Source: a virus (taxonomy: Duplodnaviria > Heunggongvirae > Uroviricota > Caudoviricetes). Taken from it: 40,878 bases of DNA. Location: the IMG/VR virus record IMGVR_UViG_2541047787_000006, positions 1 through 40,878 of that record; one strand, 5' to 3'. How positions within the stretch are numbered: position 1 is the first letter of the stretch; each line of letters opens with the position of its first letter. Made by a program: the position numbers and the translations under genes. Below, piece after piece: positions 7,058-35,547 of this stretch. Under the pieces are notes generated by a model. The model saw nothing but the letters and a program-made list of their open reading frames with translations. It ran no database searches and had not been told where the DNA came from.

Positions 7058-7101
7058 TTGAAATAACGTGAGTTATGCATTTATTATTACCTTTGCGGTA
7101 A
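7058..7101 (+). promoter_or_regulatory. Sigma70-like promoter (TTGAAA-N17-TTATTA) with overlapping operator TTACCTTTGCGGTAA at 7087-7101
   Basis: Hexamers read directly; perfect TTACC-N5-GGTAA dyad at the predicted transcription start. Confidence 0.5.
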
Positions 7102-7192
7102 ATTTACATCGCACTCCTCTTGTGCCATAGTAATCGGGCACTGGCAAAATCCAGTGCCGGGATTGGTCTCCCGGATTACTAAGTGGCGCATA

Positions 7193-7214
7193 CCACGCCA
7201 GACGTGGTTTTTTT
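7193..7214 (+). terminator. Rho-independent terminator inside the antirepressor leader
   Basis: Stem CCACG / CGTGG, loop CCAGA, followed by seven T; about 120 nt downstream of the 7058 promoter and 160 nt upstream of the 7373 start. Confidence 0.55.
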
Positions 7215-7372
7215 ATGCGTATAGCACAGTCATGCCAGAATTATGGTGGGCTGAATGGGGGTCCGAAAGGACGCCGGTACCACTTAGGCCGGTAAGACCA
7301 ACTCCGTTCAGTTCACCACCATCTGATTGGTCTCAGCGGTGGTGATGTAATTCGCTAAGTGGAGACGCCATC

Positions 7373-8029
7373 ATGAACGCTCAACTCATCCCCGTATTCA
7401 ACGGCACTATATCTAACGAAACAGCCCTACTTTGTAATGCCCGCGATCTGCACGCTTTTTTAGGTGTTAAAAAGGTGTTTGCAGCATGGATTACAAATCG
7501 CATATCAGAATACGAATTCATTGAAAATCAAGACTATATTTTGCTTTCCAATTTGGGAAAGCAAACATCTGGTAGAGGCGGCCACAACCGCAAAGAGTAC
7601 CACCTTACCCTTGATACAGCCAAAGAGCTGGCGATGGTCGAGCGTAACGAAAAAGGTCGCCAGGTGCGACGCTACTTCATTGAATGCGAGAAACGTTTAA
7701 GACAACAAGAAACAAAAGTGGAGAAGGTCTTGTCAGGCTTCATGCCCGCCATTATGGAGGCGATCAAGCTGGAAGACAAAAAAGAATACAGTGCCCCGCT
7801 GAAGCCCGGCTACCGCAGCCTGATTCATTCTCCGTCTGGTGTTCTCGGCCTGACGGAAAACTCACTGCTGATGAATCTGCTGAACCAGTTACAGGAAGAC
7901 GGGCACGACGTATCGGGCGCGGCGGCGGAGCTGACCACCATGTTCTGCTACATCGTCGGTGTGAGCAAATGCCTGCGTGATATCCAGACCCACGCGGAGT
8001 ACATCAACGACAAGGCTGGGTTCTTCTGA
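7373..8029 (+). CDS. Antirepressor, AntA/AntB-type N-terminal domain plus C-terminal domain shared with the 5728 protein
   Basis: N-terminal [34 protein letters not shown] matches the AntA antirepressor pattern; GGAG RBS at 7361. Confidence 0.7.
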
Positions 8030-23625: not shown

Positions 23626-23918
23626 TCCTGTTCACTGGCCTCTTTGGCCATCTTCAAATACTGTTCAGGGCAATGCGCCATAACGCGCTGAAACAGTTCC
23701 AGCGCCAGATTGCGTTGCCCCTCATTAAATGCCATTGCCATAGCGTCCATCGGCGAGATAGCGGAAAACACACGACCTTTCTCCAGCACCGACCAGACAA
23801 CGCGACGCCCCTGTTCACTGCTCATGACAAAGCGAATGTCATCAATTTCACGCTGTGCCATGTCACGTTGCTTACGGGCGTTTTCTTCTTTCAGTTGATC
23901 ATCTTCGTAATCTGTCAT
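23622..23918 (-). CDS. Small acidic protein between portal and scaffold genes
   Basis: 98 aa, overlapping starts and stops with its neighbours. Confidence 0.4.
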   Translation of the reverse strand: MTDYEDDQLKEENARKQRDMAQREIDDIRFVMSSEQGRRVVWSVLEKGRVFSAISPMDAMAMAFNEGQRNLALELFQRVMAHCPEQYLKMAKEASEQE

Positions 23919-25594
23919 TGTGATTGCCCACCCTGACCACTAACTGCATTCGCCATAGCTGACAAAACACTCGGATCCGAAGTTTTAGCTTCGCTTAGCG
24001 TCTTGGCACCCTGTGCCGCCGCCATCCCCATCGTCATCATTTGTTGCTGCTGTTGTTGCTGTGCCCGTTGCTGGCGAGCCTGCTCAACCTGTTCCTGCGG
24101 AACAATGACGGTTGGAGACACTCCGGACATATCAGCGAATGCATCGATCGCCTGATCAACATTGAGTTTGTCGAGAGCTTCTGGTTTCGCTTGCGCAAGT
24201 TGACCAATGAAGTTGACCGTAGACGCCAGACTGGACAGGCCGATAGACTTCTGCGCCTGAGCCATGACAGAAATGTATTCGACCTTCAGGGGCATACCTT
24301 CCATCGCGTCAGGCGGTGGCGGCAGCATGTTTTTACGCACCATCATCGAGAAAGCGCGGTCAATGAGAGGATTAAGACATTCGTCGTTCAGACGCTCCAG
24401 AACCGGCCCCAACATCAGAAGTTTTTCTTCTTTCATTTCGATCACCGCTTCAACAGGCATCGAGCGGGTATTGATGTTCTGCAACATCATGAACAGATCG
24501 ACAAAGTAGGCGCTGTTAATGATTTGACGAGTGTCCTGAATGTCTGCCACCAAATCTGCTGTACTGGGGTTAACCAGATAAGCAGGCCTGAAGCCATCCT
24601 GACCAGTAATCTGATCGATATACGTGATGTCGCCAGGAAGAAGGGAGGCGCGCTGATTCTTGAGGGAAGTCGGAGCAACCATCGGCGGATTGGTGGCTTT
24701 ATCAATCAACTGCGACTTGCGTTTCTGGAGAAGCTGCAATGCCTTAACAGGTCCAAGCGCCAGCATACCCGGGCATGATGATCCATAAACATCTTCGCCA
24801 TTAACTTCCCAGCGCGGAGCCATAATTGGAAACTCATCGAATCCGGACTCACGCAACAACTTGTCGTTATCGCCACCAACCTCGTAATAAACCGATTTGA
24901 ATGGCTTGTTCTTGCTATCCAGCTTCGATGTATCGCGGTCAATGTTCGGGTAAACCGAATGCATCACTTCAATCCACTTCTCGTAGGTGCCGCTTTCCCA
25001 CATGCTTTTTACGGATTCGCTGACGTTATTTAGTCCGAATTCCTGAACAAGCTGACGAACAGTCATAGAGAACTTGCGAAAACAGGTGTCCACACTGCCA
25101 CGAGGTGAGTTAGCCAGGTAGTAACTGCCTATCGGGAATGGCATTGTGCGAATGATGTCCTCGTCATCCTCCAGCACCGCCATTGCACCAGTGCTGTATG
25201 TGCCGAGGCTTCCGTATAACTGCGGAAGAGACTGGTAGAGATTCGACTTATTGAACATATCGTTCATGCGGTTCTGCACCGCCTCAAGCCACAACTTAAC
25301 AGGGCCATAATCCATCATTTCAGGATCTGGCGTAGCCAGGCGAAACCACGGACGCGCGGGGCTTGTGATGCCTGACATCATGCCGCTGGCGAGAGTGCGC
25401 GCCGCCATAGTCCCGGTCGAATCAATAATGCGTGTATTGCGTCGATCGTTACGGTTGACCTCAGAAGTCAGAAAGCGGGAACCACGCGGGTTGATGTAAT
25501 CACTCAACTCGCGCCAGTGCGGCTCGAACGACTGACGCTCGCTTTCAAGTTGTGCGAACTGTTTGTTCAATCGCTCTTTAGTTGTTTCCGCCAT
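23915..25594 (-). CDS. Portal (head-to-tail connector) protein
   Basis: 559 aa; follows terminase genes; poly-Gln C-terminal tail; size and position of a podovirus portal. Confidence 0.8.
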   Translation of the reverse strand: MAETTKERLNKQFAQLESERQSFEPHWRELSDYINPRGSRFLTSEVNRNDRRNTRIIDSTGTMAARTLASGMMSGITSPARPWFRLATPDPEMMDYGPVKLWLEAVQNRMNDMFNKSNLYQSLPQLYGSLGTYSTGAMAVLEDDEDIIRTMPFPIGSYYLANSPRGSVDTCFRKFSMTVRQLVQEFGLNNVSESVKSMWESGTYEKWIEVMHSVYPNIDRDTSKLDSKNKPFKSVYYEVGGDNDKLLRESGFDEFPIMAPRWEVNGEDVYGSSCPGMLALGPVKALQLLQKRKSQLIDKATNPPMVAPTSLKNQRASLLPGDITYIDQITGQDGFRPAYLVNPSTADLVADIQDTRQIINSAYFVDLFMMLQNINTRSMPVEAVIEMKEEKLLMLGPVLERLNDECLNPLIDRAFSMMVRKNMLPPPPDAMEGMPLKVEYISVMAQAQKSIGLSSLASTVNFIGQLAQAKPEALDKLNVDQAIDAFADMSGVSPTVIVPQEQVEQARQQRAQQQQQQQMMTMGMAAAQGAKTLSEAKTSDPSVLSAMANAVSGQGGQSQ

Positions 25595-25608: not shown

Positions 25609-25815
25609 TTACTGACCAAGCAGCGTTTTACCGCTGGTATTAGCGGTTGATGTGTCGCCCTGAGAACCGGTAAGCAGCGTAGAACTACGACCAGCAGCAG
25701 CGCGACGGCGACGTGTTTCTTCGTCGCGGGCATCAACAACGGCGGCATCCTGCTCCTGTGGTGCTGCCTGAACTTCTGGTGTTGCAGGCACTGATGGTGA
25801 GCTACCCATGCACAT
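25609..25815 (-). CDS. Small low-complexity protein upstream of portal
   Basis: GGAG RBS upstream of the ATG at 25815; 68 aa; weak support. Confidence 0.3.
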   Translation of the reverse strand: MCMGSSPSVPATPEVQAAPQEQDAAVVDARDEETRRRRAAAGRSSTLLTGSQGDTSTANTSGKTLLGQ

Positions 25816-25904
25816 ATCAATGACTCCGTACGCAATTAAATTATTACCAATTTAACCACATATGATTTATTTATCGTAGATAGTTGACATTTAACGCACG
25901 AATT

Positions 25905-25919
25905 ATTACCTTTCAGGTA
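25905..25919. promoter_or_regulatory. Operator palindrome TTACCTTTCAGGTAA, with TTGACA hexamer at 25883-25888
   Basis: Perfect TTACC-N5-GGTAA dyad; nearly identical to the site at 5637. Confidence 0.45.
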
Positions 25920-26242
25920 AGCAAAGAGTTCATTCCGGTTATTAACCTGACTGGCTTGTCGTTAAATTGAACAGGTGGAGTGAGCTTTTATTTTGAGCAG
26001 TACGGCGTATGGCACATGCGCCGATAGCGGTCTGGATACGTTTAAGGGGCACCCTCCCTTGCTCGAGCAAACGAACCAGGTAGCCGGAATGTGCAAGTCG
26101 AGCGGTTTTATTCCGCGCACGGGGATTCACCATCCCGGCGATTCGGTGTGACGCCTCGGAAGAGACGAGGGTGCAACGATGAGAGCATTTATGGAGCCGC
26201 GACAAAGTGTGGCGCCTTAACAGGCTAAGTGCTCTCAGCGTT

Positions 26243-26319
26243 GTGGCATTAGCTCAGTTGGACAGAGCAACCGCCTTCTAAGCGGTTGGTCGCAGGTTCG
26301 AATCCTGCATGCCACGCCA
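26243..26319 (+). tRNA. tRNA-Arg, anticodon UCU
   Basis: Cloverleaf read by hand: acceptor GTGGCAT/ATGCCAC, D-arm GCTC..GAGC, anticodon stem ACCGC/GCGGT with loop CTTCTAA, T-arm GCAGG-TTCGAAT-CCTGC, discriminator G and CCA. Confidence 0.85.
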
Positions 26320-26362
26320 GAATCACGCCTAAGGACCGTGATGCCAGAAGTTCCAGGGGCTT

Positions 26363-26404
26363 GGCGGTGATGGTTTCCCTTGAAGGACTATCACCGCCCT
26401 TTTT
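26363..26404 (+). terminator. Rho-independent terminator downstream of the tRNA
   Basis: Stem GGCGGTGAT / ATCACCGCC followed by CTTTTT. Confidence 0.55.
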
Positions 26405-26482
26405 ACAGCAGGACGCCATTGCGATGACTTCATGCTGTAAACCAGTACAGCCACGGAAGGCATAACTCATTGCTTCCAGTTC

Positions 26483-26506
26483 GCCCGGTTCGCCGGGCAT
26501 TTTTTT
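26483..26506 (+). terminator. Second rho-independent terminator
   Basis: Stem GCCCGG / CCGGGC followed by seven T. Confidence 0.6.
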
Positions 26507-26522
26507 AAGGTGAGATTAGACT

Positions 26523-26894
26523 ATGAGTGACAAAGACATTGAATCTGAAATTCAGGCTAAAGGTTTAGCCGCGCCGCGCGTTACGCCAGACCATATCGAG
26601 AGCATTATTGCTCAGGAGGCATATTTCACAGCAGAAGATGGTGCCTTTGGCGTAGCCATAAAAGCGAAACATACTGGCGGAGAGGTAAACTACCAGCCGC
26701 ACGAATCACTTTCTCTGCTGACGTTCTGCGTCCTGGTGCTGCGCAACGGCTTCACCGTCACCGGAGAGAGCGCCTGTGCAAGCCCGGAAAACTTTGATGC
26801 AGAAATTGGTCGGAAGATTGCCCGACAGAATGCTGTAAACAAAATCTGGATGCTTGAAGGTTACTTGCTGAAGCAGAAGTTAAGCGAGCAATAA
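26523..26894 (+). CDS. Conserved phage protein, possibly N4 gp49 / Sf6 gp66 family
   Basis: AAGGTGAG RBS; 123 aa; family assignment is from memory only; oriented opposite to the flanking late genes. Confidence 0.5.
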   Translation: MSDKDIESEIQAKGLAAPRVTPDHIESIIAQEAYFTAEDGAFGVAIKAKHTGGEVNYQPHESLSLLTFCVLVLRNGFTVTGESACASPENFDAEIGRKIARQNAVNKIWMLEGYLLKQKLSEQ

Positions 26895-26913
26895 CACCGT
26901 GACATATCACAAA

Positions 26914-26941
26914 CAGCCAGCCTATGAGCTGGCTTTGTTTT
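26914..26941 (+). terminator. Terminator after the plus-strand insert
   Basis: Stem GCCAGC / GCTGGC followed by TTTGTTTT. Confidence 0.5.
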
Positions 26942-26984
26942 ATCCTCATCAGAGGATATCAACAACATTATCCCCTCAAGCGGA

Positions 26985-28460
26985 TTAAGCATAGGGATCG
27001 TAATCTGTGATGGCCTTGCCTTGCTGGTTCTGCTGCCCGGGAATTCGCAGACGCTTAGACACAGGGAACGCAAACGTCAGCAGTAGCGCATCGCCTTTAC
27101 CCGGTGAACGCCCAAGCCGCTCCTTGATATCTTCCTTCGGTTCGATAACGATTTTACCGTCCACTCGAACTTTGTACTCTGCCGCCGACAGGTCGTCTGC
27201 TGTTTCCTGGTCGTCCAGCGCGCCGCCTAGCTTCAGCCACGTCTTGCAGCTGTTGAACATCTCTCCGCGCTTATTTAGCATCTGGGGATCGGTCGAGCCG
27301 CCGCCGAACGGGATTAGCTGCCATGTCCTGCCCCAGCCGTCACCGATGGACTTCAGCCCGGTGCCGTAACCGAAGTCGATGAACACCGCGTCAGCCTGGT
27401 ACTGGTCTTCAAAGTCGGCGATTCGCTTAGCCATAATCAAATCGTCGGTGGTCTTGTTGCCGGTCCAGAGCACTTTGCTGTGCAGCCCCTGCCGCAGGTA
27501 TATCACCGCGTCATCAACTCCGGAATACGCCGGGTCGACGCCGATAATCACAGGAGCGTGAGCAACCTGCCCGGCGGTAACCACCCGCTTCATGGCCTCG
27601 TCTGTAAGGCCTGTTGGGATAAACTGGAGTTCTGACGCGTCAGGGAAGATCCCCCGCACGCGGACCTTCACGAAGTCGCTGTCTTCGCCGTAGTCGTCAA
27701 CCCATTTCTGCAGCTGCTGCTTGTTTGTGCCTTCCACGGTGCGGCTGTCAATCTGCGCGCACTTCCAGCGGTGCTTGTACTTGCGGAAGCATTCGCGGAA
27801 GCGCCCGGTGTTACGCGTCGGGTTCCCAAACGCCACCCAGATAATTTCCGTGTCTTCGTCCGTCAGCGCACCTTCAGCAACTTCCCACACCAGATCTGCA
27901 ATGTTGGACGCTTCATCGAATACCACGATGATACGCTTACGCTCGTTGTGCAGCCCGGCGAACGCCTCTGTGTTGTGCTCAGACCACGGTATTGCGTCAG
28001 CTCGCCAGCGCTTGTCGTGGCCTGGGTCATTGCTGTACATCGCCGTGGCGGTGCAGGTGAACCACTCTTTCGTGATAGCCAGATTCGACCATTTGATGAT
28101 TTCCGGCCATGTCTTGGTGCGCAGCTGGTTGTCGGTGTTGGCGGTCACCACGACCTTACAATCCTCGCAAGTGGACATGCCCCAGTTGATCAGCATTGAG
28201 ATGAATGCGGATTTACCAATACCGTGACCAGAAGCGCGTGCCAGCATAAGCGGCTGATATCGCGTCTCTGGATTCTGCAGGTGATCACGTATCTCTCGGA
28301 ACGCATCGGCCTGCCACTGACGTGGACCGGTGGCATGTGCCAGTTCAGTCCCCTCTTCCCCCCACGGGAACGCATAGAGGGCATAACCAAGCGGATCGTG
28401 AGTAAACCCTGCAATATCCTCGATCAACTGCTCTTCAGGAGATAACACTGTATCTGTCAC
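26985..28460 (-). CDS. Terminase large subunit
   Basis: 491 aa; Walker A-like GHGIGKS; nuclease-type C-terminal region; GTG start. Confidence 0.9.
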   Translation of the reverse strand: MTDTVLSPEEQLIEDIAGFTHDPLGYALYAFPWGEEGTELAHATGPRQWQADAFREIRDHLQNPETRYQPLMLARASGHGIGKSAFISMLINWGMSTCEDCKVVVTANTDNQLRTKTWPEIIKWSNLAITKEWFTCTATAMYSNDPGHDKRWRADAIPWSEHNTEAFAGLHNERKRIIVVFDEASNIADLVWEVAEGALTDEDTEIIWVAFGNPTRNTGRFRECFRKYKHRWKCAQIDSRTVEGTNKQQLQKWVDDYGEDSDFVKVRVRGIFPDASELQFIPTGLTDEAMKRVVTAGQVAHAPVIIGVDPAYSGVDDAVIYLRQGLHSKVLWTGNKTTDDLIMAKRIADFEDQYQADAVFIDFGYGTGLKSIGDGWGRTWQLIPFGGGSTDPQMLNKRGEMFNSCKTWLKLGGALDDQETADDLSAAEYKVRVDGKIVIEPKEDIKERLGRSPGKGDALLLTFAFPVSKRLRIPGQQNQQGKAITDYDPYA

Positions 28461-34962: not shown

Positions 34963-35547
34963 ATGAAAAGTATCCAGGACGTCCGCAGGCAAAATCTCAA
35001 CGACTTGATCGACCGTGAATTCAATGGTGTTCAGACGCGGATGGCAGAAAAACTTGGAACTCAGGCAAATCTGGTAAACCGCTGGGCTCTTGGCAAGAAG
35101 GTTATCGGCGACCAGGTTGCGCGAAAAATTGAAGCTGCCGCAAATAAACCCCGTAACTGGCTTGATATCGATCGCTCGCTTTCTCAGGAGGGTTTTCAGC
35201 CTGTCGGCCCAAGCGACATTGGTCAGCTGGCGGCTCACAACCTGGAACGCTGGATGAGCGAAAGCCGCGACCTTTCAACTCAGGGAAAACTTCACCGCGC
35301 ATCCGGCGTCGCCCAGGTGACAATCAGCCGCCTGTTAAACAATGAGGTCAGCGTTTCCATTTCCACCCTGGAGAATGTTGCATCCGCATTCGGGCGTCAC
35401 GGCTATGAATTACTGATTCACCCGCACGACCCTGCGACTATCAACTATGATCGCTCGCGCTACGCATTGTTACCCGAAACCGAGAAAGCAAAGATCGAAA
35501 GTTACATTGAATTTGTCATCAACCAGAACGAAAAAAACAAACAATAA
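34963..35547 (+). CDS. Prophage repressor candidate with two HTH motifs and no peptidase domain
   Basis: Two HTH-like segments (QANLVNRWALGKK and GVAQVTISRLLNNE); no recognisable S24-type cleavage module; divergent from cro. Confidence 0.55.
   Translation: MKSIQDVRRQNLNDLIDREFNGVQTRMAEKLGTQANLVNRWALGKKVIGDQVARKIEAAANKPRNWLDIDRSLSQEGFQPVGPSDIGQLAAHNLERWMSESRDLSTQGKLHRASGVAQVTISRLLNNEVSVSISTLENVASAFGRHGYELLIHPHDPATINYDRSRYALLPETEKAKIESYIEFVINQNEKNKQ

Follow-up and report, generated by a model that had tools for sequence, protein, structure and literature searches.

Positions 26002-26243 of the window, by which we mean the whole 40,878-nt stretch of DNA analyzed here (positions 1 to 40,878 of the IMG/VR virus record IMGVR_UViG_2541047787_000006, Caudoviricetes), hold a plus-strand copy of a widespread family of pseudoknotted, structured phage RNAs. 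This is a new RNA family, whether or not it works as the antiterminator that we propose below. An earlier reading of the same DNA, made from the sequence alone, had singled out the stretch 25920-26242, upstream of a tRNA-Arg gene, as lacking a credible open reading frame (ORF) and had suggested that it might hold either a second, degenerate tRNA or another small RNA. The small RNA is borne out by covariation across more than 100 distinct copies, whereas the degenerate tRNA is not: neither ARAGORN nor the Rfam tRNA-clan models detected a second tRNA in 25920-26242, even at E ≤ 10. Rfam 15 returned no family match for this stretch on either strand at E ≤ 10, nothing for the core of the RNA at the gathering score in the window or at E ≤ 10 in 25800-27000, and nothing for the core in the copy of phage mEp460 and six further loci. 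The sequence-only reading would have counted such a blank against an RNA, yet comparative analysis reveals a conserved structured RNA. We found no published description of it, conserved sequence strings included; subscription journals lay outside the scope of that search, so a prior description is possible.

The architecture comprises five conserved helices, a variable hairpin (P3) and a pseudoknot, and it is not a cloverleaf. The constant part from P1 to P5 is ∼175 nt long and is usually followed by P6, giving a whole of ∼175-240 nt. In the window, the core defined by covariation and by the covariance model spans 26002-26173. The P1 hairpin (26003-26010 with 26016-26023) carries the loop GGCAC and is linked by the junction AGCGGUC to P2 (26032-26035 with 26076-26079), which has a variable tip. 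Next come the nearly invariant 19-mer GGUAGCCGGAAUGUGCAAG (26079-26097), the variable hairpin P3 (about 26102-26116) and P4 (26122-26125 with 26133-26136). The P4 loop CACC (26128-26131) forms the pseudoknot with GGUG (26145-26148), 13 nt downstream, and P5 (26154-26158 with 26166-26170) presents the loop GAAGAGA. P6 is a long helix, CAACGAUGAGAGCA ... UGCUCUCAGCGUUG, built around a variable tip (26174-26243), and its closing pair uses G1 of the tRNA.

We tested the hand-derived structure (P1, the base of P2, P4, the pseudoknot, and P5) on an alignment of 112 distinct copies. Standard pairs filled 95.7% of the cells, compared with 27-47% after the 3' partners had been slid by 1-3 columns. Compensatory changes, in which both sides differ, were present in 13 of the 25 pairs (302 cells), and the observed covariation score was reached by none of 500 shuffles. 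For one pair of the pseudoknot, 89 copies have C-G and the other 23 have A-U, with zero exceptions, and the A-U form occurs in at least three separate lineages, namely, the mEp460-like phages and the loci L133 (Kosakonia) and L149 (Buttiauxella). Likewise, a covarying pair in P1 is G-C in 75 copies and A-U in 35. RNAalifold independently recovered P2, P4, and P5; it replaced P1 by a pairing of GCACAU, located in and beside the P1 loop, with AUGUGC of the 19-mer. Both sides of this predicted contact are invariant, and it may represent a second pseudoknot or an alternative conformation. For P6, duplex folding gave a helix in all 26 distinct strand pairs, with 13-16 pairs in 24 of them, and compensatory variants such as GGUAAGAGCA/UGCUCUUUCC and GGAAAAGGCG/CGCCGUUUCC were observed; P6 is absent from the classical P1 copies. 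The covariance model, R1, scored the window copy at 174 bits. The folding energy of the stretch is modest (z = -2.1) and unremarkable alone.

The frequent G-U pairs, which become A-C mismatches on the opposite strand, indicate that the RNA is read from the plus strand. The length changes in the variable hairpins are not biased to multiples of three, and no ORF across the core stays in frame; ORFs drawn across the core are therefore not real. We regard it as extremely improbable that the stretch is a decayed tRNA or tRNA array or that it encodes the small ORFs annotated over it. It does adjoin a tRNA, and ORFs of 45-87 amino acids can be drawn, some of which have been annotated (e.g., mEp460_037 and Ayreon SJJBTUD_0037), but a tRNA signal is wholly lacking, the strong covariation belongs to a fold other than the cloverleaf, and the indels do not respect codons. 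Coding ORFs on either strand were rejected because they have no Pfam match, only marginal PHROG matches, and no conserved frame. Hypothetical proteins have been annotated over the tRNA or the structured RNA at L002 1950-2201 (PhiV10p04), L003 2943-3311 (mEp460_037), L166 7061-7180, and L007 2711-2872, and these are very probably spurious. By-eye resemblances to 4.5S RNA domain IV, RNase P RNA, the ops element (GGCGGTAGnnTG), boxA, and CsrB-type GGA motifs were also considered, but they fail and have no Rfam support.

The RNA extends well beyond the closest relatives of the window. The window region is 98.6% identical to Escherichia phage phiV10 and the O157 typing phages 9 and 10, which represent the genus Uetakevirus and are relatives of epsilon15. 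BLAST showed that 26002-26245 is shared with phages that are otherwise unlike phiV10 around the locus: lambdoid phages mEp460, cdtI, 2H10, and Ayreon and the Stx2c- and Stx2a-converting phages at ∼83% identity, P1, P7, and D6 at ∼79%, and phages of Enterobacter, Salmonella, Klebsiella, and Stenotrophomonas at 70-74%. The carriers comprise phiV10-like phages, lambdoid and Stx phages without N, P1-like phage-plasmids, and phages of Klebsiella, Salmonella, Enterobacter, and Stenotrophomonas. Scans with the 19-mer GGTAGCCGGAATGTGCAAG added 119 viral contigs and 24 species-representative genomes, the latter mostly from Enterobacteriaceae and close relatives. Two of the 24 are metagenome-assembled genomes labeled Bacillota/Oscillospiraceae, and at least one of these (L138) is a chance match. 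A scan seeded elsewhere on the RNA returned nearly the same loci and added 11, in which the 19-mer was intact in four, carried a single-base variant in five, and was deleted in two. Because the 19-mer is mostly kept in independently seeded loci, its near invariance is not a search artifact. The covariance model found a single copy in each locus fetched (∼5-15 kb surrounding the RNA), with L027 as the sole exception. There, a decayed second core (7440-7627, element oriented) is found ∼800 nt downstream of its intact counterpart, past a gene inserted on the opposite strand, and looks like a remnant of a mosaic junction.

Among complete Escherichia coli genomes, 1840 of 5426 carry the element, and RefSeq annotates nothing there. 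It is also present in 591 plasmids, which are ∼80-100 kb long and non-mobilizable, the profile expected of P1-like phage-plasmids. Whatever its function, a pseudoknotted RNA of 180-240 nt, carried by a third of the complete E. coli genomes and by P1, has gone unannotated, with spurious ORFs drawn over it, and it deserves an Rfam family.

The RNA is found in three genomic settings. In the phiV10-like setting (45 loci), the unit lies between the gp3/portal genes and the terminase gene, and the cargo genes behind its terminators vary. In the lambdoid setting (∼60 of 153 loci), a gene for a CI-type repressor (helix-turn-helix and peptidase S24 domains) ends just upstream on the same strand. In mEp460, cI is followed by a terminator, two operators of the TTGC-N7-GCAA family (which is also represented between cI and cro), the RNA itself, a tRNA-like module, and a strong terminator, beyond which the early-left genes extend to xis and int. 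In Ayreon, the depositors annotated a terminator and a promoter exactly at the RNA site. A Pfam scan of 10 early ORFs found no N-family protein in the early operons of Ayreon, and no N protein is annotated in mEp460 or Stx2a_WGPS2. In the P1-like setting, the RNA is part of the ban operon, which is controlled by C1; the classical P1 core comes after tRNA-Ile2(CAU) and leads directly into ban, with neither P6 nor a tRNA-like module behind it. In every annotated context, the gene that comes next has the same orientation as the RNA (phiV10, typing phage 9, epsilon15, Tyrion, PAT1, mEp460, Ayreon, Stx2a_WGPS2, BUCT708, SopranoGao, and P1). A 2025 study of lambdoid phages whose early-left operon holds yfbR, yfdQ, and yfdP stated that they have no N homologue and guessed at a put-like RNA, which it did not identify (PMC12315714).

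Epsilon15 is a deletion derivative, which keeps the promoter, the leader, P1, and half of P2, with the tip of P2 joined to the loop of a terminator. The apparent deletion (L005 1557-1640; also L162) lies between two CCCUUGAUGCU repeats, and an annotated "RNaseIII processing site" overlies the core remnant on the opposite strand.

In the window, 25884-26934 is a single early transcription unit controlled by the prophage repressor, and its first product is a non-coding RNA. The sequence-only reading had described here an independent plus-strand unit with a promoter and operator, a tRNA, tandem terminators, and a small gene, inserted between the portal and large terminase genes on the minus strand. 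That picture was confirmed, with each part present at or near the place given for it. The portal gene (23915-25594), a small gp3-like gene that also flanks the block (25609-25815), and the large terminase gene (26985-28460) are all on the minus strand. The promoter, which was read from the sequence (25884-25912, plus strand), consists of a perfect -35 box TTGACA (25884-25889), a 17-nt spacer, and a weak -10 box TACCTT (25907-25912). It fails a strict consensus promoter scan, and a consensus scan found no promoter-like site in 25780-27000; its position is that of the promoter annotated by the depositors in Ayreon.

The -10 box is overlapped by the operator palindrome TTACCTTTCAGGTAA (25906-25920), one of nine exact TTACC-N5-GGTAA copies in the window, compared with 0.02 expected by chance. 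The copies start at 7087, 8102, 25906, 29107, 32500, 32562, 34893, 35605, and 35667 and are likely to map the regulon of the phage repressor. Copies stand on both flanks of ORF 34963-35547, which probably encodes a helix-turn-helix repressor, judging from its sequence, and the small terminase gene has one upstream. At the place equivalent to the window operator, a "repressor, lysogeny" site is annotated in epsilon15. As the unit is driven by a repressor-controlled promoter, the promoter is an early one. The transcript leader (25921-26001, plus strand, counted from the predicted transcription start) contains a conserved segment, GUCGUUAAAUUGAACAGGUGGAGUGAGCUUU (about 25955-25985), which is kept in epsilon15, Tyrion, PAT1, and many IMG/VR copies. 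Expression in the lysogen, suggested by the rexAB-like place after cI, was considered and dropped; operators of the OL type separate the cI terminator from the RNA, and the operator over the -10 box in the window also counters the idea. As a separate observation, the operator copy at 7087-7101 lies just upstream of RNAs of the isrK/C4 type. Rfam matched isrK at 7138-7214 (67.7 bits) and C4 antisense RNA at 7239-7323 (61.2 bits), both exceeding their gathering scores, and together (7138-7323) they form a P1-type immI immunity RNA pair.

Downstream of the core, P6 is abutted by the tRNA-Arg gene with anticodon UCU and an encoded CCA (26243-26319, plus strand), which was called by ARAGORN (anticodon tct) and by Rfam (RF00005, 73.3 bits versus a gathering score of 29). 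The long ORFs of the window use AGA at 6.35 per 1000 codons, about three times the rate in E. coli, which is roughly 2 per 1000. This ratio supports the earlier suggestion that the tRNA decodes the rare AGA codon. The tRNA is followed on its 3' side by a conserved hairpin, AUCACG-CCUAAGGAC-CGUGAU (26322-26342), which recurs after tRNA-Arg and after tRNA-like modules in unrelated copies. Terminator t1 (26363-26404, terminator scan) has a 14-pair stem (26363-26398) and then CTTTTT, and it is followed by a conserved spacer of ∼80 nt and terminator t2 (26483-26498 plus a T-run; spacer and t2 together 26405-26506). Both the spacer and t2 are conserved in epsilon15. The spacer (26405-26482), which that phage retained while losing the core, is a candidate small RNA or attenuator leader for the gene behind it; its sole Rfam match is a chance-level RyhB-like one on the terminator.

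The T-run of t2 leads straight into the Shine-Dalgarno sequence AAGGTGAG of the gene at 26523-26894 (plus strand), so that the gene indeed begins right after a terminator. Its product of 123 amino acids belongs to the N4 Gp49/Sf6 gene 66 family (PHROG 322; Pfam PF13876, Phage_gp49_66, E = 2.4e-35, 121.3 bits versus a cut-off of 27 and hence above the curated threshold). A bidirectional terminator (26915-26934), which was found by the terminator scan and is annotated in phiV10, separates this cargo gene from the end of the large terminase gene and serves both strands. Altogether, the scan returned six terminator-like sites in the region, compared with 1.2 expected. With the T-run of t2 adjoining the ribosome-binding site and the interval from t1 to the gene free of promoter-like sites, the sequence predicts that the gene can only be expressed through terminator read-through. 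A PF13876 gene as an obligate partner of the RNA was rejected, as one lies downstream in just 13 of the 123 loci with at least 1.5 kb of downstream sequence.

The placement of the RNA suggested a function to us. In the settings described above, it stands behind repressor-controlled promoters and ahead of terminators that are followed by co-oriented genes. Under a stricter scan, an intrinsic terminator lies within 700 nt downstream in 107 of 134 copies (80%), compared with 19 of 121 control stretches (16%). No protein cluster recurs within about 4 kb of the RNA across the three contexts, and this lack of a shared protein partner, together with the spread of the RNA over three unrelated groups of phages, suggests that its target belongs to the host. 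The near-invariant 19-mer likewise fits binding to a conserved host machine. We therefore put forward, as a tentative proposal, that the core is an antiterminator RNA, processive and acting in cis, that would resemble the put RNAs of phage HK022 in its action but is unrelated to them. RNA polymerase starting at the early promoter would transcribe the core, and the folded core would act in cis on that same polymerase. Alone or with Nus factors, it would make the enzyme resistant to termination, as the put RNAs of HK022 do. In the window, polymerase would then pass t1 and t2, the PF13876 gene would be expressed, and tRNA-Arg(UCU) would be a cargo of the leader that supplies a decoder of rare AGA codons. 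In the lambdoid relatives, the whole early-left operon would be read through, and in P1, ban and beyond. Both polymerase binding and suppression of termination by the core are inferred, being argued from position and analogy.

Several observations weigh against this proposal. The layout of promoter, RNA, and terminator equals that of an ordinary stand-alone RNA gene. The operon of the phiV10-like phages holds one small gene, for which a 240-nt antiterminator seems excessive, and epsilon15 is viable even though its core is deleted. The t1 stem is long (14 pairs), and in one Gram-positive system, terminators with long stems are reported to resist processive antitermination (PMC10325885). There is one copy per fetched locus and none behind PR, unlike the putL/putR pair; a second copy on the PR side was not found in the ∼5-15 kb of these loci. 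The recurrent exact abutment of P6 with a tRNA or module suggests processing by RNase P, for which a cis-acting antiterminator would have no need. Finally, the mEp phages were isolated as Nus-dependent, whereas HK022 put is factor independent. If the RNA is an antiterminator, its action may differ from that of put.

The units that follow P6 bear on these alternatives. Of 129 copies, 27 have tRNA-Arg(UCU) directly where P6 ends, and in most others, a tRNA-shaped module that starts exactly at the P6 end takes its place. The commonest module reads GUGGUGA-AU-GCGC-AGGCUGAU-GCGC ... GCCGG-AGAUCAGCA-CCGG-CACCAC-AAC and is closed by an acceptor-like helix. The analogues of its D-loop and T-loop are Watson-Crick complementary (GCUGAU/AUCAGC), with a compensated form (GCUAAU/AUUAGC) in L085. 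Instead of an anticodon arm, these modules (L003 3240-3375, L016, L139, L077, and others) have a large variable insert; the L016 module has a Lys-like anticodon loop, CUUUUAA, and two modules have canonical GGUUCGAnUCC T-arms. Neither ARAGORN nor the Rfam tRNA model calls the tRNA-shaped modules. The module is followed by the conserved hairpin and then a terminator. In addition, GUUG and CAAC segments have two possible pairings, one within P6 and the other within an extended acceptor stem.

Further observations were made on the ends of these units. The P6 tips of L013, L100, and L104 contain hairpins with canonical T-arm sequence (GGUUCAAUUCC, GGUUCGAUUCC). In L062, the variable P6 tip that separates the core from the tRNA-like module contains a match to the type I hammerhead ribozyme (384-430; E = 0.005; 28.7 bits, short of the gathering score of 34) in which all core nucleotides of the ribozyme are present. 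In many copies (L077 5260-5370, L009, L014, L047, and others), the window copy not being among them, the unit ends in GCUGUGUGUAGUCUU and a terminator. This end resembles the 3' part of the host small RNA RprA (Rfam RprA, 37.4 bits, E = 0.54) and may be an RprA-mimicking 3' module.

The main alternative, which the exact junctions between P6 and its neighbors suggest and which we consider real but on balance unlikely, is that the RNA is a stable, trans-acting product. The core would be freed by RNase P, or by a ribozyme, at the module junction or would end at t1, accumulate early, and bind a host factor. Possible targets are nucleases, RNA-binding proteins, and defense proteins, for which it would serve as a decoy, sponge, or inhibitor, and the terminators would merely end the RNA gene. 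Consistent with this, P6 stops at position -1 of the tRNA in the 27 copies that have it there and at that of the tRNA-shaped module in most others, one copy has the hammerhead-like ribozyme in its P6 tip before the next module, and a strong terminator follows closely. The junction sequences are extremely conserved, as they are in protein-binding RNAs. Moreover, the RNA is the first product of early promoters, where phages often place anti-defense functions. However, the lambdoid early-left genes apparently lack a promoter of their own, which obliges polymerase to cross the unit in any case, and the classical P1 core, without P6 or a tRNA-like module, runs into ban. We know of no candidate target.

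The same neighborhood would also suit a scaffold for processing or stability, in which the core and P6 form a leader that shields the early transcript from Rho and RNases or guides tRNA maturation, with neither an effect on polymerase nor a target in trans. The RNA recurs beside tRNA-Arg (downstream), tRNA-Ile2 (upstream, in P1), or tRNA-shaped modules, and the alternative GUUG/CAAC pairing hints at a folding or processing pathway. Against such a role, the tRNA-shaped module also occurs apart from the core, ∼2 kb away in some P1 variants and alone in phage IME207, and a mere protective leader would need neither ∼60 nearly invariant unpaired nucleotides nor a pseudoknot. We judge this explanation distinctly improbable. 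A broader view would see in the core the unchanging head of a phage device that is modular and consists of RNA only. Its exchangeable parts would be tRNA-shaped RNAs in which Watson-Crick kissing takes over from the usual contact of D-loop and T-loop, one of them with the Lys-like anticodon loop, as well as T-arm mimics, a hammerhead-like ribozyme, and an RprA-like 3' end. As the first product of an infection, the device would manipulate host tRNA biology or tRNA-targeting defenses, and it would represent an undescribed type of system rather than one more antiterminator; we hold this to be doubtful.

The family can be compared with several known systems. GOLLD, ROOL, and the T4 stable RNAs C and D are structured phage non-coding RNAs that are often encoded beside tRNA genes. 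The family RNA resembles them in being carried by phages, in lying beside tRNA genes, and in its conserved junctions. However, GOLLD and ROOL are much larger, the T4 RNAs are unrelated in sequence, and Rfam gave no match to any of them. To our knowledge, none of these RNAs is tied to early promoters and terminators in the way that the window unit is.

Elements that make polymerase processive in long operons are known from the EAR RNA of Bacillus eps operons and from the leaders of rRNA operons, and antitermination in the latter needs boxA together with Nus factors. In its mid-operon position ahead of ban, the P1 copy resembles EAR. Unlike the family RNA, EAR and the rRNA leaders belong to other bacteria, and Rfam showed no match to them in sequence or structure. 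Likewise, the RNA occupies the same map position relative to OL/PL as lambda nutL. It differs from the N/nut system in that no recognizable N-family protein is present in the carriers examined and no boxA/boxB pair was seen, as judged by eye without a rigorous search.

The closest parallel is with put of HK022. HK022 putL sits just downstream of PL, and put is ∼70 nt long, with two stem-loops and a triplex but no pseudoknot (PMC9378689). The put RNAs bind the zinc-binding domain of the beta-prime subunit of RNA polymerase and suppress pausing and termination without protein factors. Like put, the RNA described here is phage encoded, is made right after a repressor-controlled early promoter in lambdoid phages that lack N, is followed by the terminators that would have to be passed, and has no evident phage protein partner. 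The two differ in that the family RNA is ∼175-240 nt long, with five conserved helices, a variable hairpin, and a pseudoknot, and is present in a single copy rather than as a left and right pair. The covariance model R1 was blank in lambda, which uses N/nut, and in the whole genome of HK022, which uses put, and homology to put was thus rejected. If the RNA is an antiterminator, it would explain early-left expression in the lambdoid phages without N, including the Stx2a- and Stx2c-converting phages. It would also bring to two the phage RNAs known to reprogram RNA polymerase unaided, and, being much larger than put and different in fold, it could reveal a new mode of polymerase binding.

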